Under the pieces are notes generated by a model. That model had not been told where the DNA came from and made no database searches. It was given only the letters and a program-made list of their open reading frames with translations. A stretch of DNA of 64,000 bases from Planctomycetota bacterium (GTDB lineage Bacteria; Planctomycetota; UBA8742; UBA2392): assembly GCA_020845475.1 (NCBI GenBank), contig JADLFN010000026.1, positions 7,080 to 71,079 on the forward strand. The letters are read 5' to 3'. Both the position numbers and the translations under genes were made by a program. This document shows positions 1,503 to 59,264 of this stretch, in pieces. Each line of letters starts with the position of its first letter. Position 1 is the stretch's first letter.

Positions 1503-1645
1503 GGTGGCTCCCGATAGTGCCCCGACAGGTTGACCATTTTTCGCGCGCCGTCAATCAGCAGTGCCCGCAAAGCCGCTAACTGAGCGGTTAGCGAGCCCGC
1601 GTCCGAATCTGTCGCAGCGCCTGCTAGCATTCGAGTGGGGGACTC

Positions 1646-2167
1646 ATGGCCGAATTTCGCCTGAGCATGCGCGCTATTGAACGCGGCGAGAAGCCGCGCC
1701 GTGCCCGCGCGCCCAAAGTGGTGAAACCGCCACGGCCGCTGAGCCAGTTGCGCAAGCGAGGCTACCCCAAAGATTGGGCCAAAATCAGCAGGCGCGTGCG
1801 CTTTGAGCGCGCCAAAGGCATCTGCGAGAACTGCGGCAAGCGCCACGGCGAGATTGTGTATCAGGGCCCGCAGGGATCATGGCAACGCGACGGCAAGTGG
1901 TTTGACGCCAACGGGAAACCCATCGATGCGCCGCCGCCGTGGCCAAGCCGCCAATGGTGGGACCATTTGCGGCACTACGGTGACCCGCCGCATATCAAGC
2001 GCGTCAAAGTCATCCTGCACACGGCGCACCTCGACCACAACCCAAGCAACTGCGCCGATGAAAACCTGGCCGCGTTCTGCCAGGCCTGTCATTTGAGATA
2101 CGACGAGGGCCTGCACCGCTGGACCTGGGGATCACGCGGGATCTCTCCCGCGGACAAAGAGTTCTAG
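1646..2167 (+). CDS. HNH endonuclease (phage-type, stand-alone)
   Basis: 173 aa. CENCGKRHG ... HTAHLDHNPSNCADENLAAFCQACHLRYD gives a Cys pair plus an H-N-H core. Confidence 0.8.
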   Translation: MAEFRLSMRAIERGEKPRRARAPKVVKPPRPLSQLRKRGYPKDWAKISRRVRFERAKGICENCGKRHGEIVYQGPQGSWQRDGKWFDANGKPIDAPPPWPSRQWWDHLRHYGDPPHIKRVKVILHTAHLDHNPSNCADENLAAFCQACHLRYDEGLHRWTWGSRGISPADKEF

Positions 2168-2229
2168 CATGGGCGGCGAAATTCAAATACGATCCGCAGC
2201 GATCTTGAACCACTCCAGGATAATCAGAG

Positions 2230-3303
2230 ATGGCAACAACTAAGCGTGAACTATTTATTCAGGACGAGCTTGGCGACGAACACGTAGTCGTCCCATTCAA
2301 GTACGCGATAACCAGTTACGGTGCCGACTACGACGTCCGCGGCATTGTGCACAGAATTAAGGACGAGGACATTTACGTACCGCGATTTCAGCGCGGCTAT
2401 GTGTGGAACTACCATCAAGCGTCGCGATTTATTGAGACGCTCTTGCTCGGCTTACCGGTACCGGGCATTTTCTTGGCCCGCGAGGCAGAGACAAATCGAC
2501 TTTTGGTCGTAGATGGTCAACAACGACTGAAGACCTTGCTCTTCTTCTATGAGGGCGTGTTTGGACCAAATGAGCGGGCGTTCTCGCTAGTTGACGTTCA
2601 GGAACAATTTGAAGGACTCTCCTACAAGAAGCTTGATCAGCAGGACCGCCGCCGCCTTGACGACTCAATCCTGCACGCCACGGTTATCAAGCAAGACGTT
2701 CCCTCGGAGGATGACAGTAGCATCTACCACGTGTTCGAGAGGCTGAACACAGGTGGTACGCGATTGCAGCCCCAAGAAATACGGGCCTGTATCTACCACG
2801 GAGAATTTAATGAAGCCCTAGATGATCTAAACAAGACGAAATCCTGGCGATCGATCTTTGGCGCTGTAAACAAACGGATGAGAGACAAGGAGTTGATCCT
2901 GCGCTACTTTGCGTTGCTTTACCACTCCAACAGCTATAAGCGCCCAATGGTCGAATTCCTCAACCGGTACATGGGTGCCAATCGACATCTCCAGAAGCAA
3001 CAGTTTGGACAACTAAGGACTGACTTCGTCGAAGTAATTGACATCGTATTCGAATCGGTCGGGAAACGTGCATTCAAGCCCGAGCGCGCATTCAATGCCG
3101 CCGTGTTCGACTCGGTCATGGTCGGCATTTCCAGGCGCCTGAGCAACGGGCGAATTAGCAAGATTACAGATGTTGGCAGCAAGTACCGTGAACTGATCAA
3201 AGATGCAGATTTTCAGGAGGTATGCAGCACTTCGACCTCTCAAGAGGATCGCCTCGAAAAGAGACTGAAGATCGCGACAAGGTACTTTCACGAGGTCGAT
3301 TAG
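2230..3303 (+). CDS. DUF262 (ParB/GmrSD N-terminal-like) domain protein
   Basis: 357 aa. PRFQRGYVWNYHQASRFIETLLLGLPVPGIFL...LLVVDGQQRLKTL matches the DUF262 signature including DGQQRL. No DUF1524/HNH C-terminal domain is seen. The gene is more AT-rich than its flanks by eye. Confidence 0.85.
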   Translation: MATTKRELFIQDELGDEHVVVPFKYAITSYGADYDVRGIVHRIKDEDIYVPRFQRGYVWNYHQASRFIETLLLGLPVPGIFLAREAETNRLLVVDGQQRLKTLLFFYEGVFGPNERAFSLVDVQEQFEGLSYKKLDQQDRRRLDDSILHATVIKQDVPSEDDSSIYHVFERLNTGGTRLQPQEIRACIYHGEFNEALDDLNKTKSWRSIFGAVNKRMRDKELILRYFALLYHSNSYKRPMVEFLNRYMGANRHLQKQQFGQLRTDFVEVIDIVFESVGKRAFKPERAFNAAVFDSVMVGISRRLSNGRISKITDVGSKYRELIKDADFQEVCSTSTSQEDRLEKRLKIATRYFHEVD

Positions 3304-3758
3304 TGCATCCGGACATAGTCGCGCATCAGTCACGTCTGAAATCGACTTTGGCCTTCGCACAGAAGTTAGTCGATGCCGAAGCACAGGGGCATTTTGCTCG
3401 TTACATTTGTGTTCTGACTTCTGGGTTTATCGAACAAGCGATTCGAGTGCATTTTGGTGCCTACGCCCAAATCCATGCCTCTCCTGAACTCGTTCGATTC
3501 ATCTCGAAGGAGTTGGAGACATTTCAAAACCCCAAAGTAGGCAAGGTCATTGCTCTCTTGCAAAAGTTCAGCGAGGACTGGGCGAGGGAAGTGCAAAGTG
3601 GAATCGAGGGACGCATCGGCGACCATATCGATAGTATCGTCGCTAGACGCCACGAGATAGCGCACGGAAAACCTAGCGGCCTCAGCTTGGGCACCGCTAC
3701 AGAGTACCTAAAGAGTGCGTTCGAATTCCTTGAGGTTATCTGCAGCAAGTGTGCCTAG
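3303..3758 (+). CDS. small HEPN-domain protein (MAE_28990-like; Rx4-6H motif)
   Basis: In-frame GTG at 3303 overlaps the DUF262 stop (TAGTG), suggesting translational coupling. The protein is all-helical with ARRHEIAHGKP near the C-terminal third, which fits the HEPN Rx4-6H motif. The track ORF starts earlier (3222) inside the upstream gene. Confidence 0.7.
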   Translation: MHPDIVAHQSRLKSTLAFAQKLVDAEAQGHFARYICVLTSGFIEQAIRVHFGAYAQIHASPELVRFISKELETFQNPKVGKVIALLQKFSEDWAREVQSGIEGRIGDHIDSIVARRHEIAHGKPSGLSLGTATEYLKSAFEFLEVICSKCA

Positions 3759-3974
3759 TACGATTCTAGCCCTCAGACCCCCTACGTCCGATAATCAGTG
3801 TTATGTGCGGTTGGGGGTCCGAGGGGGCTGCTGCCAGCCGTCTGGCTCTGCTGGCTGGTTTGGCGCCGATTGACGGTCACGGGTTGCTGCTTTGCTTGCC
3901 TGCGGCCGAGTTTACTTCACCGGCTTGGGCATTCGGGAGTTAAACTGGCACTTTGCCCCGACTCTCGGCCCCAA

Positions 3975-5237
3975 TTGAGGCTTTCCTTGGCTTCTAAATC
4001 GATCCTGGCGCTTTTCGCCCTGTGTGCCGCTTTGCTGGCGGCTTCCACGCTGGCTGCTGCTACTTTGAACGTGACGCTCAGCGGCGCCTCGCCCGCGAAC
4101 TTCGAAAACCGGCTCAGCGACACTTCCATTGAGGTCACGCGCTTTGTGCTAACCTCAACTGGCGCTTCCGTGGATTGTTCGGCCGTGACTATCACGTTTA
4201 CGAACCCAACCACGGCCGACGAAGCTTTCACCGCCGTGCGCGTGTTCTATGACGCCAACGGCAACTCCAGTTTCGAAGCCGGCGAAGAAATCGGCGTCGG
4301 CCAGGCGCCCAACGGCGTAGCCGCGACACTGTTGTTCACCGGCGCGTTCAGCGTGCCCACCAGTTCGCGCCTGATGCAGGTGATTGTCAACACCGGCGCC
4401 AATGTGGCCAGTTACGGCGACGGGTTTCGTTTCAGCATCGCGGCGGCTGGCGATATCACGCTGGCGAATCCCGGCACCGATAGCGTCACGGGTGCGTTTC
4501 CCGTTCAAGGGAACACGATCACCATCCGCAACAGCATGTCCAATCTGCTGGCGGGCACGGGCAATCCCGCATCGCCGCGCACCGTGGCTCGCGGAAGCAC
4601 CAACGTTGCCGGGGCGCACTTTCGCCTTGACTGTCTGGCGGCCGTGATTCCCGGCGAGCTGGTAGGTCTTGACCTGTCAAGCATCACCGTCAGCCTCAAC
4701 CTCGGCGCACCCGCCGATGCCAACGTGATTGCTTCGGTCAGCCTGTTCGGCGACGATTTCGATGCCGCGTTTGAGCCCAACACACAAGACCCGCTGATCC
4801 AGGCGCGCACCAGCGCCGACGTCGCCAAGTGGGCGGTGGCCGGCAGCACCTTGACGGTCATCTTCGACGGCGCGGCTGTCACGGCGCTTACTTCGATCAA
4901 TTCGGGCACCGTGCGCGCCTTCTGGATTGGCGTGAGTTTCAACAGCACGGCCGACGCTGTCGTGGAAGTGCTGGTCAATCGCACCGGAATTCTCGGGGCC
5001 GAAGGCGCAAGCGGCGATTTCCTGACCACCGCGATCACCAGCATCAGCGGCAACGTGATTACCGTCAGTGGAAGCGGCGGCGGCGGAGGTGACGGCGGCC
5101 AGGGCAATCGGCCCTCGGAAGAGGGCGGCTGTGTTGTCTCCCCCACTGGCTCATGGGCGCCGGGGATGTTGCTTTGCATGCTGGCGGCGGGCTTCTGGTT
5201 TGTGCGTAAGCGTAGCCGGCCCAATTCCACTACTTAG
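3975..5237 (+). CDS. secreted protein of unknown function with a Gly-run/Cys/TM/basic C-terminal tail
   Basis: Track ORF 3798..5237 (GTG). The signal-peptide-like stretch SKSILALFALCAALLAASTLAAA follows an in-frame TTG at 3975, so the start is uncertain. Tail: SGSGGGGGDGGQGNRPSEEGGC-VVSPTGSWAPGMLLCMLAAGFWFV-RKRSR. Confidence 0.6.
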   Translation: MRLSLASKSILALFALCAALLAASTLAAATLNVTLSGASPANFENRLSDTSIEVTRFVLTSTGASVDCSAVTITFTNPTTADEAFTAVRVFYDANGNSSFEAGEEIGVGQAPNGVAATLLFTGAFSVPTSSRLMQVIVNTGANVASYGDGFRFSIAAAGDITLANPGTDSVTGAFPVQGNTITIRNSMSNLLAGTGNPASPRTVARGSTNVAGAHFRLDCLAAVIPGELVGLDLSSITVSLNLGAPADANVIASVSLFGDDFDAAFEPNTQDPLIQARTSADVAKWAVAGSTLTVIFDGAAVTALTSINSGTVRAFWIGVSFNSTADAVVEVLVNRTGILGAEGASGDFLTTAITSISGNVITVSGSGGGGGDGGQGNRPSEEGGCVVSPTGSWAPGMLLCMLAAGFWFVRKRSRPNSTT

Positions 5238-6307: not shown

Positions 6308-7282
6308 ATGAAGACGATGTTTCTAGCCGCGTGTTTGGCGCTGTACGCCACGACGCTTGCGGCCATGGACAAGGGCGAAGAAGCTCCCAACTTCAAGTTC
6401 GAGGCAAGCTGGAACACACTGCCCGGCGCGAAGCAGCTCACGGATTACCGCGGCAGAATTGTATTCCTCGAGATCTGGAAGATTCACTGAGAGCCCTGCA
6501 TGCGGTTTCTCCCGCACCTCGTTGAGGTAAATGAGAAGTATCGCGACAAAGGCGTCGAAATCATCATGGCCACGGACGTTGACAAGGCGCCCGAGCTTGA
6601 GAAATTCATCGCTGATAAGAAGCTCAAGCTTGGCGTCGCGCGCGTTGTGGACGTCTACAAGCTCGTCAAGGCCCAGGGCTACCCCACCAGCTACGGCATC
6701 GACGTTGACGGCAACTGCATCTGGCGCGGCCACCCGCAGGGGCTGAACGACGCGTTAGTGGATGGCTGGCTCAAAGACCTGCGCGCGCCCAAGATCCCGC
6801 GCAAGCTCAGTGATGCGCTTGGCGCGGCTGTGAGCGCATACGACAACGGCCAGTACGGTGGAGCGCTCAATGCGCTCGAAAAGCCGCTCAAACACAAGGA
6901 CGAGAAGGTCAAGGCTGACGCGCAGTACATCGCCGATCTGCTCAACGGCCGCCTCGAGATGAACAAGGCTGCCGCCAAGATCTACCGCGACAGCGGCGAA
7001 CTGGAGAAGCTCGTGGCGCTGCTCGAGGGCGACGCCAAGGACTTTGGCGGTATCGACTACGCCAAAGATTGCGCCAGCGAAGCCAAGAAGACCAAGGCCA
7101 GCAAGGCCTACAAGCAATGCGTCGAAGCGCGCGAGAAACTGGAGAAGCTGAAGCCCGGCCTCAAAGACATGAAGCCCGCAGATGCCGCCAAGGCCCTCAA
7201 CAAGCTCGCGAAAGAATTCGCCGATACGCCCGCAGGCAAGCAGGCCGCAGAATTGGCCAAGGAATACGAAGAGAAAAAGTAG
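6308..7282 (+). CDS. paralogous periplasmic thioredoxin-fold protein, predicted selenoprotein with UGA-Sec at 6488..6490 (U-E-P-C)
   Basis: ORFs 6239..6490 and 6500..7282 share a frame. Read-through: LTDYRGRIVFLEIWKIH-U-EPC-MRFLPHLVEVNEKYRDKGVEIIMATD. The likely start is ATG 6308 (MKTMFLAACLALYATTLAA signal peptide). It has the same C-terminal Lys/Ala/Glu-rich helical domain as 5264..6235. Confidence 0.8.
6491..6511 (+). promoter_or_regulatory. candidate bacterial SECIS-like hairpin immediately after the UGA
   Basis: GAG-cc-CUG-CAUG-CGG-uuu-CUC: outer pairs 6491-6511, 6492-6510, 6493-6509; inner pairs 6496-6505, 6497-6504 (GU), 6498-6503; loop 6499..6502. Confidence 0.4.
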
Positions 7283-7309
7283 AGATAGCGGGCACTTGCA
7301 ACGTGTAAC

Positions 7310-7333
7310 AGGGGCGACAAAGATGTCGCCCCT
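7310..7333. repeat. REP-like palindrome AGGGGCGAC-AAAGAT-GTCGCCCCT
   Basis: Read directly. It has the same arms as the 28-mer at 567 and 55480, and is intergenic between 7282 and 7350. Confidence 0.85.
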
Positions 7334-7349
7334 ACCGTTAGGTGCATCG

Positions 7350-7994
7350 ATGCCTTTGAAACTCAATGAAATCGAACGCCGCGTTCTGGGCACGCTGATT
7401 GAGAAGTGGCTCACGACGCCGCAGGCCTACCCACTCTCGCTCAATGCGCTGACCAACGGCTGCAACCAGAAATCGGCGCGCGACCCCGAAACCAGTTACA
7501 CCGAGCAACAAGTTGAGCAAACCTGCATGAGCCTGAAAACGCGCTCGCTCGCCATGCAGTTCTTCGGCGCCGGCGCGCGCGTTTCAAAGTGGGAAGAGGC
7601 GCTGAGCGCCACGATGCACCTCGGCAAGGACGAAGTAGCCGTGCTGGCCGAGCTCATGCTGCGCGGCCCGCAAAGCGAAGGCGAGCTGCGCTCACGCGCC
7701 AGCCGCATGCACGATTTCCCAACGCTCGAATCCCTGCACGCCACACTCGAATCGCTGCGCACAAGGGCCGAGCCGCTGGTGCAAAGGCTGAGCGAAGAAG
7801 GCCGCACCCGCGGAGTACGCTGGGCCCACACGTTTTACGGAGAGGGCGAGAAGCTCCCCCAAGCCGCGCCGGAGGCCCCCACCACGGCATCAGGCAGCTT
7901 GAACGCAACAGCCGTGTCCCCCACTCTCGATCAGCGCCTCGCTGCGCTGGAAGCGCGCGTAGCCGAATTGGAGAGAAAGACGCTGGGGCTGTAA
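7350..7994 (+). CDS. yceH: YceH/DUF480 (UPF0502) family protein
   Basis: MPLKLNEIERRVLGTLIEKWLTTPQAYPLSLNALTNGCNQKSARDP...LMLRGPQSEGELRSRASRM matches the E. coli YceH pattern. ATG 7350 was chosen because ATG 7323 lies inside the palindrome. Confidence 0.8.
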   Translation: MPLKLNEIERRVLGTLIEKWLTTPQAYPLSLNALTNGCNQKSARDPETSYTEQQVEQTCMSLKTRSLAMQFFGAGARVSKWEEALSATMHLGKDEVAVLAELMLRGPQSEGELRSRASRMHDFPTLESLHATLESLRTRAEPLVQRLSEEGRTRGVRWAHTFYGEGEKLPQAAPEAPTTASGSLNATAVSPTLDQRLAALEARVAELERKTLGL

Positions 7995-8004
7995 CTTTGG
8001 AGTG

Positions 8005-8024
8005 CGCCGGCTCGCCGGCGTTTT
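8005..8024 (+). terminator. rho-independent terminator
   Basis: CGCCGG-CTCG-CCGGCG followed by TTTT, 10 nt after the stop at 7994. Confidence 0.6.
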
Positions 8025-8148
8025 GCAGTTTGGCCGCACGCACATGCCCCAAAGTTCGTTGCGCAACGCGCGCCAAGCCTGCATCATGCGCACCCCCACC
8101 CGACTTCGCCTAAGCTAAGTCAGGCAAGCCCGTATTCGAGACCAAGCC

Positions 8149-9789
8149 ATGTACAGATTTGCCTCAATGCTCGCGATTGCCCTGCTGCCGGTAGTGTGGC
8201 TGTCTGCATGTGGAGGCAACAGCGTCCCGGAACTCAAGAAAGTCGAGAAGAAGGACGTCATCGTTGTAGCACGCGGCGACAAGTCGGAGATTCTTGACCC
8301 GCACGCGACCAACAGCGGCGGCGATGCCTACCTGATCCAGCAGATGTACGACACACTCGTACAGCCTTCAGCCAAGCCGCCCGTGCGCTGGGAGCCATGC
8401 CTCGCGGAGAGCTGGAAGGACGAAGATTTCAAGGTGTTCACTTTCAATCTGCGCAAGGGCGTCAAGTTCCACGACGGCGCTGATTTCAACGCGGCCGCCG
8501 CCAAGCGCAGTTTCGAGCGCGGCACCAACCTGAAGGATCCGGCCGCACCGCCCAAGCTGCCCTACGCCGAGGAGTATTTTGGCGATATCGAGAAGATTGA
8601 AGCGGTGGACGACTTCACGCTGCGCATTACGCTCAAGGCCTCCAACCCCAAGTTCATTGCCAGCTGTGGCTTGTTTGCCGCTTCGATCGTGAGCCCCAAG
8701 GCGATTGCGGCCATGGAAAAAGAGGCCAACGCCGGTGCACGCCAGAACTGGCTCACGCGTCATCCAGCGGGAACAGGCCCATACACGATCGCCAAGGAAG
8801 GCGACTACCAGGGCGCCGAAACCGTGATCATGACGGCCTTTGACGGCTACTGGGGAGGCAAGGCGGCGACTTCGCGGGTCGTTTTCAATCACGACAAAGA
8901 CCACAAGAAACGCCGCGAGCAACTTACCAGCGGCGCTGTGCAGTTGATTGACAGCCCCGCCCCTGAAGACTGGGACTTGCTGAGCAAGGACACCGGCGTG
9001 ACGCTCTATTCGTGGGAAGCCGAAAATCTGTGCTATCTGGGTCTGAACACCGATGCCGCCAACGGCTTTGCCACATCCAAGCTCGAAGTGCGCCAGGCCA
9101 TTGCCTACGCCATTGATCGCGAGCAGATGCTCACGCTCTATGCGGGCACGGCCAAAGCGCACCATGTGCTCCTGCCGCCCGTGATGATCGGGCACCCTGC
9201 GGGCTACAGGCCTTCCACCGATACTGGATCACGCGCTGAACGGCTTGAAAAAGCGCGCGCGCTGCTCAAGGGGGCGGGCGTTGAAAAGCTTGAACTCAAG
9301 CTGCTGCACCCAGCTGTTTCGCGGCCCTACCTGGGCAAGCCGCCGGAGGTTGCGGATTTCATTCGCCAGCAACTCGCGGAAATCGGCATCACCGTCAAAC
9401 CCGAACCCACGCCCATGCGCGAACTGGGCGACATCATCTCCAAGGGTACGGCGCCTATGGTGTTGATCGGCTGGATGGGCGAAACGGGCGAGCCCGACAA
9501 CTTCTGGACGCCGCTTCTTTCCGGCCGTGGTAAGCCCTCTGACAACAACGTGCCGCGCTTCTGGGACAAGGATGTAGCGGCAAAAGTAGATGCTGCCGCA
9601 GTTGAACGCGACATCTCCAAGCGTGAAGCCATGTACCTGGAGCTCGAAAAAACCGTGCATGAGAAATTCCGTCCCATGGTTCCGCTGCTTACCGCCAAGC
9701 AGGCTGTTGCCTGGCGTTCGGAGGTTGAAGGCATTTACGTGGACTCGACCGGAACGTACCGGCTGCACAAGGCGCACTACAAAGAGTAA
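8149..9789 (+). CDS. ABC transporter substrate-binding lipoprotein, family 5 (peptide/nickel, DppA/OppA-like)
   Basis: 546 aa with lipobox LSACGG, family-5 SBP size and motifs, followed by two Dpp/Opp-type permeases. Confidence 0.85.
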   Translation: MYRFASMLAIALLPVVWLSACGGNSVPELKKVEKKDVIVVARGDKSEILDPHATNSGGDAYLIQQMYDTLVQPSAKPPVRWEPCLAESWKDEDFKVFTFNLRKGVKFHDGADFNAAAAKRSFERGTNLKDPAAPPKLPYAEEYFGDIEKIEAVDDFTLRITLKASNPKFIASCGLFAASIVSPKAIAAMEKEANAGARQNWLTRHPAGTGPYTIAKEGDYQGAETVIMTAFDGYWGGKAATSRVVFNHDKDHKKRREQLTSGAVQLIDSPAPEDWDLLSKDTGVTLYSWEAENLCYLGLNTDAANGFATSKLEVRQAIAYAIDREQMLTLYAGTAKAHHVLLPPVMIGHPAGYRPSTDTGSRAERLEKARALLKGAGVEKLELKLLHPAVSRPYLGKPPEVADFIRQQLAEIGITVKPEPTPMRELGDIISKGTAPMVLIGWMGETGEPDNFWTPLLSGRGKPSDNNVPRFWDKDVAAKVDAAAVERDISKREAMYLELEKTVHEKFRPMVPLLTAKQAVAWRSEVEGIYVDSTGTYRLHKAHYKE

Positions 9790-50162: not shown

Positions 50163-50235
50163 CACTCGCTTCGCTTGTGCCATATAATTTAGCCGTGGCA
50201 TGGAATGCATCTTTGCCATTGGGCGGAGGTGTGCC

Positions 50236-50493
50236 ATGGATGTCGTCGAACAAATTCACGTGCGCTTGGGAAAGAACGGGCGCGTCGTGATTCCGGCTGA
50301 ATGGCGTGAGAAGCTCGGGCTGGGCGAAGGCGACGAGCTTGTGCTGACGTTTGGGCCCGATGGCTTCCGTATCCAGAGCGCGCTGGAATTACGCAAGCAG
50401 GCCCAGCAGCGTATGATGAAGTACAAGCCCAAGGGCCGTTCGGGCGTTGACGAACTCATCGCAGAGCGCCGCAAAGAGGCCGGTCGTGGCTAG
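50236..50493 (+). CDS. AbrB/SpoVT-type antitoxin (VapB-like)
   Basis: GGAGG lies upstream of ATG 50236. RLGKNGRVVIPAEWREKLGLGEGDELVL is the swapped-hairpin AbrB motif. It overlaps the PIN gene. Confidence 0.7.
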   Translation: MDVVEQIHVRLGKNGRVVIPAEWREKLGLGEGDELVLTFGPDGFRIQSALELRKQAQQRMMKYKPKGRSGVDELIAERRKEAGRG

Positions 50494-50866
50494 AGTGCTG
50501 GATGCCTCGGCTGTGCTTGCGTTCCTTTTGGGTGAAAAGGGGGCAGATGCGGCTTTGGCCGCGATGCCGGGCTCCCAGATTTCCACGGTCAATATCGTTG
50601 AAGTTTTTTCACGCATGGTGGACTACGGTTCACCCGACGAAGACGTCCGTCAATCCATCAGGGAGCTCGCGCTGGAAACGGTGAATTTTGATGAGGATCT
50701 CGCAGTGCGCTCCGGCGCGCTTCGCCGCGAAACGGCAAGCCTGGGGCTTTCTGTGGGTGATCGAGCCTGTCTTGCCACTGCGATGAAACTAGGCGCCACG
50801 GTCGTCACTGCCGATCGGGCCTGGCTGAAGCTCAAGCTGGGCGTCACCATCGAGTGCATTCGCTGA
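50486..50866 (+). CDS. vapC: PIN-domain toxin (VapC-like)
   Basis: VLDASAVLAFLLGE... (N-terminal Asp), ...LSVGDRACLATAMKLGATVVTADRAW (conserved Asp). GTG starts are possible at 50486 or 50495. Confidence 0.75.
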   Translation: MARVLDASAVLAFLLGEKGADAALAAMPGSQISTVNIVEVFSRMVDYGSPDEDVRQSIRELALETVNFDEDLAVRSGALRRETASLGLSVGDRACLATAMKLGATVVTADRAWLKLKLGVTIECIR

Positions 50867-50984
50867 GTGACTCAAGAGACCCCGGAATTCTCCACTTTCG
50901 CGTGGAACGCCTTAAAAGGATGGCAATATCTGGTTAAAGGACGATTCCTGACGCGGCTATGCCGCACTGACCGGAGACACAGCC

Positions 50985-51491
50985 ATGATTCACAACGTTT
51001 CGGGCGACATTCTTCTGAGCAAGGCCGACTTGATCGCGCACGGCGTTGCGCCACTGGACGACTTCAAGAGCGGGCTCGCGCTGGCGCTGCGCGAGAAGTA
51101 CCCCTCGATGTACAAGGATTTCCGCCACTACTGCAAAACGCTGAGCCCCAAGACCGGCAGCGCCTGGCTTTGGGCCGGCGTAGGCGAGGGCGGCAAGACG
51201 GTTAAAGTAGCCGCGCTGCTGACACAGGAAGCCCCCAAGAAAGAAGGCGAGCATCCCGGCAAGGCGCACATCGAATTCGTCAACCGCGCGCTTCACGACC
51301 TCAAGAAGCTGATTGAGAAAGAGAAATTCAAGAGCGTGGCATTGCCGCGCGTGGCCACGGGCGTCGGCGGCCTGGCGTGGAAAGACGTGCAGCCACTGAT
51401 TGCAAAGGTGCTGGGCGATCTCAAGGTTCCAGTGTTTGTGTACGAGACGTTCCACAAGGGACAGGCGGCAACGGAACCCGGACTGAAGTAG
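50985..51491 (+). CDS. macro-domain protein (ADP-ribose binding/hydrolase-like)
   Basis: 168 aa. SGDILLSKADLIAHGV..., SVALPRVATGVGGL resembles macro-domain Gly-rich loops. Confidence 0.7.
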   Translation: MIHNVSGDILLSKADLIAHGVAPLDDFKSGLALALREKYPSMYKDFRHYCKTLSPKTGSAWLWAGVGEGGKTVKVAALLTQEAPKKEGEHPGKAHIEFVNRALHDLKKLIEKEKFKSVALPRVATGVGGLAWKDVQPLIAKVLGDLKVPVFVYETFHKGQAATEPGLK

Positions 51492-54149: not shown

Positions 54150-54619
54150 ATGTCGCGCAGCGACACTACGGCCTGGGCCGCGATGGCCTCTTTGCGCCCG
54201 AGCGCATCAAAACCCTCGTTCGTGCGCGCCTTCACGTTCACCTGGCTTGTGCGAATCTCGAGAATGTCGGCGATGCGTGCTTCCATCTTGCGCTTGAAAC
54301 GGCCCAGCTTCGGCGCCTGCGCAATCACGTTCGTGTCAATGTTCTCGATCTCATAGCCGCCCTCACGCACGAGGTCCCAGGCCTTCTTGAGCAGCATCGC
54401 GCTATCGGCGTCTTTCCATTTGGCGTCCGTGTCGGGGAACAGCTCGCCGATGTCGCCCTTGCCGGCAGCACCCAGAATCGCGTCCGTAATCGCATGCAGA
54501 AGCGGGTCCGCGTCGCTGTGGCCAAGGCAGCCGCGCTCGTAGGGAATCTGCACGCCGCCCAGCATCAGCTTGCGGCCTTCGACCAGCGCATGAATGTCAT
54601 ATCCGATGCCAACGGGCAT
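54113..54619 (-). CDS. ispF: 2-C-methyl-D-erythritol 2,4-cyclodiphosphate synthase
   Basis: [51 protein letters not shown]... The start at ATG 54619 was verified. The track ORF (to 55492) is an antisense extension. Confidence 0.9.
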
Positions 54620-54682
54620 GGCGTTCCCCTTTCCACGGCGGGCGATAGTATGCCCGTCGAGCGGACTTGTGTAGGGGACAAC

Positions 54683-55399
54683 ATGGCAGACCCGGTGATT
54701 TACGGTGACGGCAGCACGGACTACGAAAAATACATTCGCACGCAGGAGCTCTATCGTCTGCAGAAGGGCCCCAAGGAATGGGCCAACGAAGAGGAGCTGC
54801 TGTTCCAGAGCATCCACCAGGCCATGGAATTGTGGCTCAAAGTGGTAATCCAGCATCTCGAGCAATCGGTCGCTTGGGTGAAGGCCGACAAGCTGCGCGA
54901 CGCCACGCGCTTCATCAAGCGCACCGCCAGCATGATCGAGTTTCTGGGCGATAGCCTGAAGTTCCCGATGTCGATTGCGCCCTGGGATTACCACAAGATT
55001 CGCATGGGCCTGGGCAAGGGCAGCGGCCAGGAAAGCCCCGGCTTCAACAAGCTGCTCGACTCGCCCGAAAAGCTCTGGGAAGCCTACGCGGCTACGCTCA
55101 AGCGGCACAAGAAAACGATTGATGAGGTACACCAGGATCCGCACGGACTGCCCGACCTGTTTGAACTCACGATCGCGATGTCCGAGCTGGATCAGGAGCT
55201 GATGCACTGGCGTTATCGCCACTTCCAGCTCGTGAAGCGAATCATCGGCGACGCCGTGATGAGTTTGAAAGGCATCCCGGCCAGCGCGCTGGAGAAGAAC
55301 GGCAACATGGCGTTCTTCCCGGAAATCTGGGCGGTGATCAATCGAACCACGAACGCCTATAACCAGAAGTACAGGCCCCAAGGCGGCGGGGCCTATTAG
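54683..55399 (+). CDS. kynA: tryptophan 2,3-dioxygenase family protein
   Basis: [14 protein letters not shown]...[16 protein letters not shown]..., [14 protein letters not shown] (proximal His), FFPEIW all parallel the bacterial TDO pattern. Start at ATG 54683. Confidence 0.75.
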
Positions 55400-55402
55400 T
55401 AG

Positions 55403-55422
55403 CACGGGCCTCCCGGCCCGTG
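55403..55422 (+). terminator. stem-loop right after the kynA stop (no T-tract)
   Basis: CACGGGCC-TCCC-GGCCCGTG, an 8-bp stem. Confidence 0.4.
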
Positions 55423-55425
55423 TAT

Positions 55426-55445
55426 GGGCGACCCATCGGTCGCCC
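55426..55445. repeat. REP-like palindrome GGGCGACCCATCGGTCGCCC
   Basis: Read directly. It differs by one base from the copy at 610..629. Confidence 0.85.
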
Positions 55446-55479
55446 GCGTGAAACGGGGCGTAAACGAATCGCGGGCGTT

Positions 55480-55507
55480 GTAGGGGCGACATATATGTCG
55501 CCCCTAC
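55480..55507. repeat. 28-nt palindrome GTAGGGGCGACATATATGTCGCCCCTAC (identical to 567..594)
   Basis: Read directly. Confidence 0.9.
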
Positions 55508-55518
55508 GGGAGAGAACC

Positions 55519-55725
55519 ATGAAACCCGGAATGATTCTTGTGCTGGTCGGAGCCGCGCTTGTGGTGTGCGCGCTCATGGACGTATTCGGCATGAGTCACG
55601 GCATCAATTTAGATCTCGGCTTCAAGAAGTTCAGCGAATGGCCCCCCGAACGCTGGGGTTTACTGGGCGCAGGGGCAGCGGTTGCAATCCTCGGCGCCTG
55701 GTCGCTCAAGGGCAAGGGACGCTAG
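55519..55725 (+). CDS. small membrane protein (68 aa)
   Basis: GGGAGAGAACC precedes ATG 55519. Two hydrophobic helices. Confidence 0.5.
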
Positions 55726-55781: not shown

Positions 55782-56711
55782 ATGCACGAAATGCCACCTG
55801 ACTCAAAATTAGCCAGCCAGTTTTCCACGCTGATTGGGCGATGGAAGCGATTGATTCCGCTGGTCGGCGACCCTGTCTTCCCGCATCGGGACGCCCTGCC
55901 CGGTACCGTTCGCGATGCCTTCGGTTCCTTCGTTAGATCAATGAGGATGCAACTTACAACAGCAATAGAACAGGATCTCAAACGCATAGCGGCGATCAAA
56001 ACAACGCTAAAAAGGTGGTGGACCGAGCACGACTTGCTCACGGTAGCTCTCTTGCGGTTCGGCGAGGACGGCTACACCGAGCTAATGAAATGGGCTATGG
56101 AAGCGTCTGGGAGCAGCGAATTGGCACTGCTTTTACAGCATGCGTTCTTGAAACACTTCAATCTATTTGAGACATGCACCCCGTCTAAGCCGGCGGCAAT
56201 TCACTCTCAATTCCGTACCGACTATGGCAACTATCCGGATATGGTCATGGACTTCACGACGCTGGTAGTCGTGATCGAGGCTAAGACCGGTACAGACGAA
56301 CACGAAACGAGGACAAGCAAAGAAGGTGACACACTTAAGCACGCGATGCAGACAGAGGCCTACCCCTGGCAGGTGCGGGAAACTCTTGGGCGTTCCGACT
56401 CACTGCCTGTCCCAGTCGTCTTCGTGACTCCCGACAGGTGCAAACCTCAAAACGAAAGAGCTTTGCGCCTAAGTTATCTGGAGTTCGCGATCATACTGGC
56501 CCACACGCTCTCGAAAGTCCCGGAACACTGCATCCACGACTCATTGAGATGGGCATACAAAGCCGTGATCTCTCATTTCACTGTGTGCGGCTTGAGCCAG
56601 GAAGCCGTCACGTTCATCTTTGTCAACGACAATTCCTTGCCGTTGGACAAGTTGTCTTTGATTCAAGAAATCTCGGATCGATTGGGAGAAGTTCCGTATG
56701 GCGAAGATTGA
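55782..56711 (+). CDS. PD-(D/E)xK nuclease superfamily protein (PDDEXK_4-like arrangement)
   Basis: 309 aa. N-terminal WTEHDLLTVALLRF (E-x-x-h-T-x-x-L), then YPDMVMDFTTLVVVIEAKTG (D ... E-x-K core) and QTEAY. More AT-rich than its flanks by eye. Confidence 0.6.
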   Translation: MHEMPPDSKLASQFSTLIGRWKRLIPLVGDPVFPHRDALPGTVRDAFGSFVRSMRMQLTTAIEQDLKRIAAIKTTLKRWWTEHDLLTVALLRFGEDGYTELMKWAMEASGSSELALLLQHAFLKHFNLFETCTPSKPAAIHSQFRTDYGNYPDMVMDFTTLVVVIEAKTGTDEHETRTSKEGDTLKHAMQTEAYPWQVRETLGRSDSLPVPVVFVTPDRCKPQNERALRLSYLEFAIILAHTLSKVPEHCIHDSLRWAYKAVISHFTVCGLSQEAVTFIFVNDNSLPLDKLSLIQEISDRLGEVPYGED

Positions 56712-57225
56712 ATTTTCAGACATGGCGAGGGAGTATGCCGCGAATCTGGCGGTCATCCAGCGCGTCGAGAAGGAATTTGAAGAGAGCATTACAGCCTTTT
56801 GGGACAGCCTTTATTCTGAGCTAGCGTTAGGCGTTAAACCGTTGATCTTTGGTCATTCCAAGCCCACAAAGCAGTGGACCTTCTGGGCCTCCAACGTCAA
56901 GCGGCCCGAAAAAAAGTCGGAGTATTGGCCAGGAGCATTGCTTTGGACGGAAGACGCCTTCGATACGCGCATTGTACTGTCAGGAGAACTCCACCTAATT
57001 GCTGGAGTCCCTTCAGGTGAAGCTGAAATCTGCAAGAGCGTCCGTGCGTTGGCCGGTGATCCCAAGTTCTCGGCATTCTGCAAGCCTGACACCAAGGCGA
57101 TGTGGTATCTGTTCAGGGCTCAATTCAAATCCCCCAATGGCGCGGATATGCAAACTTTAGTCGAGCCGATTACGGGTCTCCTTCGCGCTATGCATGAGGC
57201 AACCGTGGCAGCGCAGCCCAAGTAG
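56698..57225 (+). CDS. hypothetical protein (175 aa)
   Basis: 14-nt overlap with the nuclease gene and the same AT-richer composition. No motif recognised. Confidence 0.5.
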   Translation: MAKIEFSDMAREYAANLAVIQRVEKEFEESITAFWDSLYSELALGVKPLIFGHSKPTKQWTFWASNVKRPEKKSEYWPGALLWTEDAFDTRIVLSGELHLIAGVPSGEAEICKSVRALAGDPKFSAFCKPDTKAMWYLFRAQFKSPNGADMQTLVEPITGLLRAMHEATVAAQPK

Positions 57226-57354
57226 GGTCAGATTCAGATTAATGAAAACTTGTGCTGGTACGACGGGGCACGGCTCAGCATTGCTCAGCGCAACGGGTAT
57301 CATTCGCTCGGTGGGGCACTTTGAAAAGCACTGTGGTCAAGTCGAAAGGCGGCT

Positions 57355-58029
57355 ATGTCAGATGACGTGGAAGATCTAAGTGTTTTCGATCCAATCGCGG
57401 AACGGAACCGACGGGCCGAACAAGACTTGCAGGCAAAAGAAGCCGCGCAACAGGCGAACCCCGTTGCATTAGATCCCGTCGCCCAGGCAGTAAAGTCGGT
57501 TCACCGCACTCTGTTGATCGTTATCGGAGTAGTCGTGCTTGGGTTAGTCGGCGCGGTCTCTGGCGTCGGTTATCAGCAGCGCCGTGCGTACGTTGACGAC
57601 GCAGAACGAGCCGCGCGCACACAACGCGACGAGTATTCCAAGCGGGCTCAACGCTACTTGGATCATGCGCGAGCATCCAAGAATCCAAAGGCGTTTGCTC
57701 TTTGGTGCGTCTACAGAGAGAGCGCAGGGACATACTTGTTGGTCATCAACGAACGCAAGGACCCGAGCTTCTTTCTGAGTGGAAGGTGGTCTGTGGCTGA
57801 AGCTAAACGTGACCGAACAGGGCAGTTTGAGGGCATGGATTGGTCCGCTGTGTCGAGCGAGCTGAAGGTCGCTGCTGAAGCGATCACACAATATGACATC
57901 CACATTGGGTCGCTGTTCAGCGCAGAAGCTGAAGACGAGCTGCGGGCCCAGCGAATGGCTTGCGCTTGGGCCGAGAAGGCCCTTGATGGATATACGTACG
58001 CAAGGGAGAACGATGGGACAACGAAGTAG
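57355..58029 (+). CDS. hypothetical single-pass membrane protein (224 aa)
   Basis: Acidic N-terminus, TM LLIVIGVVVLGLVGAVSGVGY, C-terminal globular part. No motif recognised. Confidence 0.5.
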   Translation: MSDDVEDLSVFDPIAERNRRAEQDLQAKEAAQQANPVALDPVAQAVKSVHRTLLIVIGVVVLGLVGAVSGVGYQQRRAYVDDAERAARTQRDEYSKRAQRYLDHARASKNPKAFALWCVYRESAGTYLLVINERKDPSFFLSGRWSVAEAKRDRTGQFEGMDWSAVSSELKVAAEAITQYDIHIGSLFSAEAEDELRAQRMACAWAEKALDGYTYARENDGTTK

Positions 58030-58103: not shown

Positions 58104-59264
58104 ATGCGTGTAAACGATCCCCTGCTTAAATGGCGCGAGGAGTTTCCGATCCTTTCGCGCAAGACCTACCTGATCAACAACTCGCTGGGTGCGATGCCCC
58201 GCGGCGTTTACGAAGGCGTCAAGCACTTCGCTGACATGTGGAACAACGACGGCGTCGTGGCCTGGCACTATCCCGACGGCTCGGGCTGGCTGCATGATTG
58301 CGAATTCACGGCCGACCTCATTGGCTCCGTGATGGGCGCGCCCAAGGGCAGCGTGATGCTGCACCTCAACGTAGCCACGCTTACGGCTCAGGTGCTCAGC
58401 TCAATTGATTTCTCAAAGAAGCGCAACGGCATCGTTTACGACACGATGCAGTTCACGAGCCCCCATTACGTCGTCCAGGAGTGGGCGCGCTATGGCGCCA
58501 GGATCACGATGGTTGAGAGCGACGACGGCATCGGCGTGGACGTGCAGAAGATCTGCGACGCCATCACCGAGAAAACCGCGCTCGTTCCCATCAGCCACGT
58601 CTATTTCCGCAGCAGCTACCTGCAGGACGTGCAGCCCATCATCGAGAAAGCCCACAAAGTCGGCGCGAAAGTGTTGCTCGACGTTTACCAGAGCATCGGC
58701 ACCGTGCCCTTTGACGTCACGAAAATGGGCGTCGATTACGTTGTCGGCGGCTCCGTGAAATGGGTCTGCGGCGGCCCGAACGTGTGCTACCTCTACATCC
58801 GCCCCGACCTGATCAAGGACTACGACCCCGCGCTCACGGGCTGGATCAGCCACGCGCGGCCTTTCAAATTCGAGATGGAGTTCACGCCCCACGAAGGTGT
58901 CTGGCGCGCGAGCACCGGGACTCCGCCCGTCGTTGCGCTTTACTCGTGCCGACCCGGCTACGAGATCATCAAGCAGGTGGGTGTCGAGAACATCCGCGAG
59001 AAAAGCCAGAGGCTGACCTCGCGCCTGATCGAGCAAGCCCAGGCCGCAGGTTTCAAGGTCAACACGCCGCTCGACCCCAAGCGCCGCGGCGGCACGGTGT
59101 GCATCGACTGGCCCGGCGCCGACAAAGCCGAGCAGGAGCTTATTAAACGCGGCTTCGTGATCGACTATCGCCCCAAGGGCGGCATCCGCGTCAGCCCGCA
59201 CTTCTATAACACGGAAGAGGAGTGCGACGCGATCATCGCTGAAATGAAGAAACTGCGCGCCTGA
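58104..59264 (+). CDS. kynU: kynureninase (class V aminotransferase fold)
   Basis: YLINNSLGAMP, VGGSVKWVCGGPN (compare KYLNGGPG), LTGWISHARPFKFEME, VIDYRPKGGIRVSPHFYNT all parallel Pseudomonas kynureninase. Confidence 0.8.
   Translation: MRVNDPLLKWREEFPILSRKTYLINNSLGAMPRGVYEGVKHFADMWNNDGVVAWHYPDGSGWLHDCEFTADLIGSVMGAPKGSVMLHLNVATLTAQVLSSIDFSKKRNGIVYDTMQFTSPHYVVQEWARYGARITMVESDDGIGVDVQKICDAITEKTALVPISHVYFRSSYLQDVQPIIEKAHKVGAKVLLDVYQSIGTVPFDVTKMGVDYVVGGSVKWVCGGPNVCYLYIRPDLIKDYDPALTGWISHARPFKFEMEFTPHEGVWRASTGTPPVVALYSCRPGYEIIKQVGVENIREKSQRLTSRLIEQAQAAGFKVNTPLDPKRRGGTVCIDWPGADKAEQELIKRGFVIDYRPKGGIRVSPHFYNTEEECDAIIAEMKKLRA

Follow-up and report, generated by a model that had tools for sequence, protein, structure and literature searches.

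A PD-(D/E)xK nuclease gene and its conserved partner: a candidate two-gene defense module in a Planctomycetota bacterium

The PDC systems catalogued in PADLOC are 145 untested candidates that were drawn from genes lying inside BREX, DISARM and type I restriction-modification (R-M) systems (Payne et al., 10.1101/2024.01.29.577857). One of them, PDC-S26, is a single-gene phage-defense candidate that was identified by 'guilt-by-embedding', and the concept of an effector embedded in a type I R-M system, known from PrrC, is summarised in the same work (10.1101/2024.01.29.577857). The subject of the present analysis is a cassette of three forward-strand open reading frames (ORFs), genes A, B and C, in a stretch of 64,000 nucleotides (positions 7,080 to 71,079 of Planctomycetota contig JADLFN010000026.1, hereafter the window); the corresponding NCBI tags in this Planctomycetes metagenome-assembled genome are IT461_05020/25/30. 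An initial annotation made from the sequence letters had proposed the cassette as a candidate uncharacterised defense or accessory system, its nuclease, adaptor and membrane protein being compatible with a sensor/effector module. The comparative evidence presented here leads us to favor, on balance, a mobile two-subunit nuclease module composed of A and B, whose function, inferred from its relatives and their surroundings, is probably defense against mobile genetic elements (MGEs); gene C is not a component of this module.

The nuclease gene and its partner

The three ORFs and the 14-nt overlap between A and B are present exactly where the initial annotation placed them (Table 1). Alignment with homologs and the spacing to a GGAG motif indicate that the probable true start of gene A is the ATG at 55791, which gives a protein of 306 aa. 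An exhaustive profile hidden Markov model (HMM) search of 1.84 billion representatives retrieved a gene A family of 183 clusters (50% identity) with a threshold of E ≤ 1e-3, or 99 when E ≤ 1e-30 is required, whereas a word-index search returned only two relatives and thus under-reported the family. In an alignment of 95 diverse homologs, residues E95, W104, D153, E166, K168, E173, Q190 and Y194 are invariant, and the motifs E95 (in a helix), P152-D153, E166-A-K168, E173-H174 and Q190-x3-Y194 follow the order helix-E, D, ExK, QxxxY of the RecB/Cas4-type set. The segment on which the nuclease assignment was originally based, YPDMVMDF…VVVIEAKTG, corresponds to residues 151–170 and the downstream QTEAY to residues 190–194, and the invariance of the active site in all 95 homologs supports the assignment to the PD-(D/E)xK nucleases. 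The N-terminal helix motif described at the same time was placed less accurately: the string WTEHDLLTVALLRF does occupy residues 79–92, but its glutamate E81 (WTEHDLL) is not conserved, and the invariant acidic residue is E95 (GEDGYTELMKW). D84, which is ~90% conserved, belongs with F14, F47 and F50 to the conserved residues of an extra helical N-terminal region of ~95 aa.

The AlphaFold2 (AF2) model of gene A has a core (residues ~100–250) with predicted local distance difference test (pLDDT) scores of 71–94, flanked by 95 N-terminal and 30 C-terminal residues that are modeled poorly. Within the core, D153 precedes a strand at 154–157, the ExK motif lies within a strand at 162–167, and Q190 and Y194 are located in a helix at 190–202, so that D…ExK on consecutive strands is combined with a predicted alpha-beta-beta-beta-alpha-beta core, as in the PD-(D/E)xK superfamily (CL0236). 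Foldseek, which the initial annotation had recommended, bears this out: the core matches two phage proteins named 'PD-(D/E)XK nuclease superfamily protein' in BFVD (probability 1.00, E 6–7e-5; target-normalised template modeling (TM) score of 0.64 for the second), and the top matches in the PDB are all PD-(D/E)xK nucleases, though none reaches E < 0.001. Sequence and profile searches of the PDB gave nothing meaningful, either with gene A alone or with the profile of its family. With every catalytic residue intact, gene A is predicted to encode an active DNA nuclease of the Mg-dependent type.

Placement of gene A among curated families is more distant. Gene A itself matches PF12705 (PDDEXK_1) at E 0.02 with 15.3 bits, below the cut-off of 22 bits; it passes no curated threshold, and PADLOC, NCBIfam, PHROGs and the PDB sequences are all empty for it. 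The match of the single protein to a nuclease profile is thus below threshold; of its relatives, 45 of 95, scanned singly, match PDDEXK_1 (best 2e-6). Fewer match PDDEXK_4 (16 of 95, best 1.5e-7, all weak) or, weakly, the cas4 model TIGR00372 (11 of 95). The proposal that gene A is of PDDEXK_4 type is not upheld, gene A having no match to PF14281 (PDDEXK_4) even at E ≤ 1, and sequence comparison places its core nearer to PDDEXK_1/Cas4. In PADLOC the family matches PDC-S26 (55 of 95), DruK (29) and Cas4 (21). No alignment column exceeds 32% cysteine, which indicates that the family does not carry a Cas4-type Fe-S cluster. As judged from these profiles, the gene A family is a previously undescribed and uncurated one within the PD-(D/E)xK clan. 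Two unusual members are recorded separately. In the 367-aa homolog P0007 the nuclease is preceded by an N-terminal PIN-like fragment of ~75 residues (PIN_3, 4e-9), which is either genuine or a fusion produced by gene calling. At locus L006 (Tepidisphaeraceae contig DAIRGS010000236) the frame of the homolog is interrupted by a TAG codon at 7196–7198, just before the PD motif, so that this copy is a pseudogene or reflects an assembly error; the B gene downstream of it is intact.

Gene B proved as devoid of recognisable motifs as the initial annotation had found it, with no match in Pfam, PADLOC, NCBIfam, PHROGs or the PDB for the single protein or for the family profile. A word-index search for its relatives likewise returned none, its homologs being uncalled or truncated ORFs; those beside gene A were detected with an iterated B HMM. 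They are 165–195 aa long and fall into two subtypes, one short and one with a long insert, that differ in a variable middle region. Only L12, Y13 and W63 are nearly invariant, no polar residue is invariant, and the predicted secondary structure consists of a long N-terminal helix, a four-stranded sheet and a C-terminal helix. None of 26 B homologs contains a DNA-binding Pfam domain of the helix-turn-helix (HTH), ribbon-helix-helix (RHH) or AbrB type, and their isoelectric points (pI) range from 4.8 to 9.7. The possibility that B mimics or binds DNA was dropped on account of this inconsistent charge, and the derivation of B from A as a degenerate paralog was rejected at an hhalign probability of 0.2%. 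Gene B probably encodes a non-catalytic partner that serves as a sensor, specificity or regulatory subunit.

The association of the two genes was followed through 52 related loci, comprising contigs of two close relatives, 2 GTDB genomes (both Tepidisphaeraceae), 36 metagenome contigs found in a scan with a 22-sequence alignment of gene A relatives, and 10 contigs of further representatives. Of the 39 non-redundant loci whose DNA extends far enough downstream of A, 38 carry a B homolog directly behind it. In the exception, L020, A is followed by a tyrosine-recombinase-like C-terminal fragment (1599–1826), which suggests disruption of the pair by a mobile element. Among 28 non-redundant loci, 22 have a B start that overlaps the end of A by 1–14 nt (as ATGA in 14 of them), and a GGAG-like Shine-Dalgarno (SD) sequence mostly precedes the overlapping start. 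Fusions of A and B into a single polypeptide, with B at the C-terminus of A, occur in three independent clusters at 50% identity (P0031, P0064 and P0110/P0155), and on contigs L044 and L048 they were verified as uninterrupted single ORFs. Pairwise identities of A and B across 31 loci are correlated (Pearson 0.72, Mantel p ≤ 0.0005), with B diverging faster (mean identity 24%, against 33% for A). Adjacency, junction overlap, fusion and co-divergence together identify A and B, at the level of sequence, as one co-inherited unit, so that the functional unit comprises two genes rather than three, and the same features make it almost certain that the two proteins interact physically. The initial expectation that the trio would travel together is thus borne out for A and B and fails for C, which is found in none of the 52 loci (phmmer, E ≤ 10).

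Genomic contexts, proposed function and alternatives

Type I R-M genes adjoin the A-B pair in ~7 of 29 loci with usable flanks (L004, L007, L012, L013, L021, L022 and L047), a raw count to which no background rate is attached. At L004 the order is A-B-hsdR-mrr-hsdM and the stop codon of B overlaps the start of hsdR by 4 nt, and at L007 and L012 hsdM lies directly upstream of the pair. Methyltransferases at other loci are parts of complete neighboring type I systems and stand outside the conserved pair. The flank of L051 contains REase-ARP, PDDEXK_4 and HNH genes, and that of L049 a SNF2/NOV_C helicase gene with DUF1156, a pair that we take to resemble DISARM DrmD/DrmMI. Further flanking families are PDDEXK_13, Mrr_cat, DUF2779, integrase, transposases, TrwC relaxase and HipA. 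No cas gene occurs in any flank, and there is no CRISPR context. These observations suggest that the A-B family may lie disproportionately near defense genes. The genes around the pair vary between loci, and those in the window are unrelated even to those of its closest relative, L001, which indicates that the pair moves as a unit. Most occurrences are in poorly studied environmental phyla, including Planctomycetota, and in soil, sediment and peat metagenomes.

Two local arrangements among the loci are described without assigning them to the module. Topoisomerase genes lie divergently upstream of A-B at L005/L015 (topoisomerase VI A and B, 1640–5005, minus strand) and at L043 (GyrA/ParC-like, 7094–9607, minus strand), and may be there by chance. 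A co-directional gene for an XRE-type HTH protein lies directly upstream of A at L005/L015 (5416–5769) and L006 (6119–6637; HTH_3, HTH_31, HTH_19); it may be a local regulator in Tepidisphaeraceae that is not conserved family-wide.

Guilt by association, and that only, makes a defense role for A-B plausible, and several results weigh against it. Housekeeping genes are the neighbors at about one third of the well-flanked loci (among them the window, L001, L006, L043 and L046), and in the window the pair lies outside any defense island. Searches of 72,556 plasmids, of 50,697 phage records and of the IMG/VR contigs yielded no relatives; this absence is silent on defense, but it leaves the vehicle of transfer unseen. 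Gene A and its closest relative, P0002, match no defense model in PADLOC, a scan that the initial annotation had called for, and the matches of other family members to PDC-S26 are weak (14–32 bits) and cover only profile positions ~30–200 of ~400, the nuclease half. The single-sequence AF2 model of gene B has a pLDDT of 41, is unusable, and was not used for a fold search.

The A-B module, with an unrelated orphan gene C, was probably inserted between kynA and kynU by horizontal transfer. If the pair is indeed a defense module, its mode of action may be outlined as follows. Coupled translation would yield A and B in roughly stoichiometric amounts, B would be complexed with A as a non-catalytic subunit, and the variable middle region of B could provide recognition of a target or trigger, or gating. 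A would then leave DNA uncut until foreign DNA or a phage cue appears. Because the module has no methyltransferase, self would be distinguished from non-self either in a type-IV-like manner, by modified DNA or DNA ends, or by activation through a trigger, as in abortive infection. A third option is suggested by the loci at which the pair abuts hsdR/hsdM or shares an operon with them, namely that it backs up type I restriction in the style of PrrC; a general dependence on an R-M partner is excluded, since most A-B loci, the window included, have no R-M neighbor. The most specific formulation, which we put forward tentatively and would not yet prefer to its negation, is that A-B is a previously undescribed, self-contained, methyltransferase-less two-subunit restriction or abortive-infection system in which B, with a new fold, licenses A upon sensing a feature of DNA or a cue from a phage, and that the subset nested in type I R-M operons could, like PrrC, serve as a reserve triggered by the inhibition of restriction.

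The compactness of the pair, its overlapping genes, its mobility and its variable contexts near MGE genes could also describe a toxin-antitoxin (TA) or addiction module, in which A would be a DNA-damaging toxin and B a proteic antitoxin that together stabilise themselves or their island. Such a module could also act by abortive infection, in which case it would overlap with the defense role favored here. The faster evolution of B and its want of catalytic residues are likewise shared with many antitoxins. The gene order, however, places the nuclease first with its partner coupled behind, an arrangement that does not favor an excess of antitoxin; the stable A-B fusions in three clusters are hard to reconcile with a labile antitoxin; and B has neither an HTH, RHH or AbrB-type Pfam domain nor a consistent charge. 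At ~300 aa, gene A is also large for a type II toxin. A TA module is considered unlikely.

A decidedly unlikely explanation, though one suited to the catalytic motifs, is that A-B is an accessory or housekeeping-type repair or recombination nuclease that processes DNA ends in the manner of RecB/Cas4 with a structural partner and has no immune role. Enzymes that process DNA ends (RecB/AddB/Cas4) typically have a RecB-type active site with QxxxY, and the loci among housekeeping genes, as well as the divergent topoisomerase genes at L005/L015 and L043, would fit. Against this stand the very patchy distribution (~183 clusters among all the representatives searched), the lack of conserved synteny across loci, the foreign composition of the pair in the window, and the recurrence of R-M and other restriction-type genes beside it; furthermore, no RecT, ERF or Rad52-type partner and no phage context were seen. 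That the pair is cargo of mobile elements, serving anti-defense or MGE maintenance rather than the host, is quite improbable: some flanks do contain an integrase, transposases or a relaxase, and an integrase-like fragment replaces B in L020, but most loci are without an MGE backbone and the plasmid, phage and IMG/VR collections are without homologs.

Should A-B, as a two-gene defense module, prove protective, a compact system of a nuclease and a new partner would be added to the defense catalogue, from hosts in phyla that current defense libraries cover badly, and the structure of B, as a new sensor or regulator domain, would merit investigation. The analysis corrects the unit to be studied to two genes and identifies the catalytic residues for mutation, and the natural fusions make a single-chain construct possible. 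Since many nuclease-based candidates already exist, the addition would be incremental unless the mechanism of B is unusual.

The cassette and other features of the window

The cassette separates kynA, the tryptophan 2,3-dioxygenase (TDO) gene, from kynU, the kynureninase gene, and its surroundings are thus of the housekeeping kind. As the initial annotation had stated, its GC content is below that of the kyn flanks: values for A, B and C are 0.525, 0.530 and 0.561 (window mean 0.604), and GC content at third codon positions (GC3) is 0.63, 0.61 and 0.596 against 0.72–0.84 in neighboring genes. A and B together have a GC z-score of −2.8 relative to all 1.45-kb windows of the 64 kb, 1.7% of which are equally low. 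The cassette is compositionally foreign, and A and B are horizontally acquired. No tRNA genes, flanking direct repeats or integrase were found in the window as marks of insertion, no sigma-70-like promoter was matched, and terminator-like matches were at chance level.

Table 1. Positions of the cassette genes and of other features in the window
Feature	Position	Strand	Description
Gene A	55782..56711	+	309 aa ORF; RecB/Cas4-like PD-(D/E)xK nuclease, predicted catalytic subunit
Gene B	56698..57225	+	175 aa ORF; putative non-catalytic partner of A
A/B overlap	56698..56711	+	14 nt; translational-coupling junction
Gene C	57355..58029	+	224 aa orphan ORF; acidic N-terminus, one transmembrane helix
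Possible small ORF	55520..55725	+	68 aa; two hydrophobic segments; SD GGGAGAG; 56 nt 5' of gene A
Left border of cassette	55403..55507	.	Three GC-rich hairpins immediately 3' of the TDO stop codon
Left flank (kynA)	54494..55399		Tryptophan 2,3-dioxygenase gene (PF03301, 8e-19)
Right flank (kynU)	58104..59264		Kynureninase gene (Aminotran_5 + KYNU_C)
Second low-GC patch	1646..3758	+	GC ~0.51; three ORFs described in the text
Small overlapping ORFs	50200..51491	+	AbrB/SpoVT-like and PIN-like ORFs, then macro-domain-like ORF

The 131-nt spacer 3' of the TDO gene folds as RNA with a z-score of −5.25. Two of the three border hairpins are GGGCGAC…GTCGCCC palindromes resembling repetitive extragenic palindromic (REP) elements. 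Such REP/BIME-like palindromes occur 5 times in the 64 kb against an expectation of 0.03, also at 571–629 and 7312–7331, and the two-hairpin doublet after the TDO stop codon aligns with 520–680 in reverse complement. This dispersal across the window points to a genome-wide repeat that is not specific to the cassette, and the hairpins were therefore ruled out as cassette ends.

Gene C has the properties first attributed to it, namely an acidic N-terminus (net charge −5 over the first 50 residues) and one transmembrane segment by Kyte-Doolittle analysis (~52–74). Among ~5.8 billion proteins its sole match is to itself, and no match in Pfam, PADLOC, NCBIfam, PHROGs or the PDB falls below E ~0.07. 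Comparative support for a membrane-protein sensor is therefore lacking, and on the evidence of these searches gene C is not part of the conserved module. A three-component system with C as the membrane-anchored sensor and A-B as the executing part is, in spite of the co-orientation of C, its position 129 nt downstream of B and its similarly low GC3, very improbable, because C is missing from all related loci, no analogous membrane protein is consistently adjacent across them, and A-B stands alone between unrelated genes elsewhere, as at L046. The low-GC3 signature common to A, B and C is consistent with C having been co-acquired on the same DNA segment.

The reality of the small ORF upstream of gene A as a gene is uncertain; its GC3 of 0.667 is intermediate, and a longer version of 101 aa has no homolog in 42 loci. 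No third gene family broadly common to the A-B loci was found. Two subclade-specific neighbors recur in 3–4 loci each: a protein of ~460 aa whose gene overlaps the start of A or follows B (L016, 41–1456; L021, 3–1379; L027, 1587–2990), and a protein of ~115 aa that accompanies the long-insert B subtype (L017/L019/L024, ~7356–7709, minus strand; L032, 3972–4310). Neither has a PDB sequence match, and both could be optional third components.

Elsewhere in the window, the second low-GC patch holds a Cys/His-rich ORF of 173 aa, an ORF of 357 aa with 'VVDGQQRLKTL', and an ORF of 178 aa with an Rx4H HEPN-like 'RRHEIAHG'. These motifs were read by eye; the DGQQR of the 357-aa ORF is as in DUF262/GmrSD/BrxU-type proteins, and the patch may be another defense islet. 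The small overlapping ORFs nearer the cassette resemble an AbrB/SpoVT-type antitoxin and a PIN (VapC-like) toxin, the latter with a reduced GC3 of 0.66.

Comparison with known systems

Literature searches turned up no described system with the composition of A-B. It differs from classical R-M in that neither A, B nor C contains a methyltransferase domain, an absence already noted in the initial annotation. With type II TA systems it shares two small overlapping genes that are mobile, patchily distributed and found in islands, and it is set apart from them by gene order and coupling, by the fusions, and by the lack of a DNA-binding antitoxin domain.

Likeness to Cas4/RecB (PF12705; TIGR00372) resides in the helix E, D, ExK and QxxxY motifs and in PF12705 being the most frequent Pfam match in the A family, whereas conserved cysteines and a CRISPR or helicase context are lacking. 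Shedu (SduA, DUF4263) offers a functional analogy, that of a PD-(D/E)xK effector gated by a non-catalytic module. Its nuclease domain (8ti9_B) is among the PDB fold matches of gene A, at a level that is not significant (E 0.13, TM score 0.17–0.25); A-B has no match to the PADLOC Shedu profile, and its putative regulatory module belongs to another family and is encoded separately or fused to the C-terminus of the nuclease. The resemblance to PrrC/EcoprrI is one of genomic logic only, an effector gene lying within or abutting hsdM/S/R as at L004, L007 and L012, for PrrC is an ABC-ATPase/anticodon RNase unrelated to the enzyme encoded by gene A.

The nearest counterpart is PDC-S26, the top defense-library match of the A family (55 of 95 at E ≤ 0.01, best 5.6e-9), which likewise has a PD-(D/E)xK core and is likewise nested in or beside type I R-M systems. 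PDC-S26 is a single gene of ~400 aa, whereas A and B appear as an obligate pair, and the notion that PDC-S26 is itself an A-B fusion was not supported, B matching no PDC-S26 model. On profile comparison, the A family is a distant relative of PDC-S26 and not a member of it.

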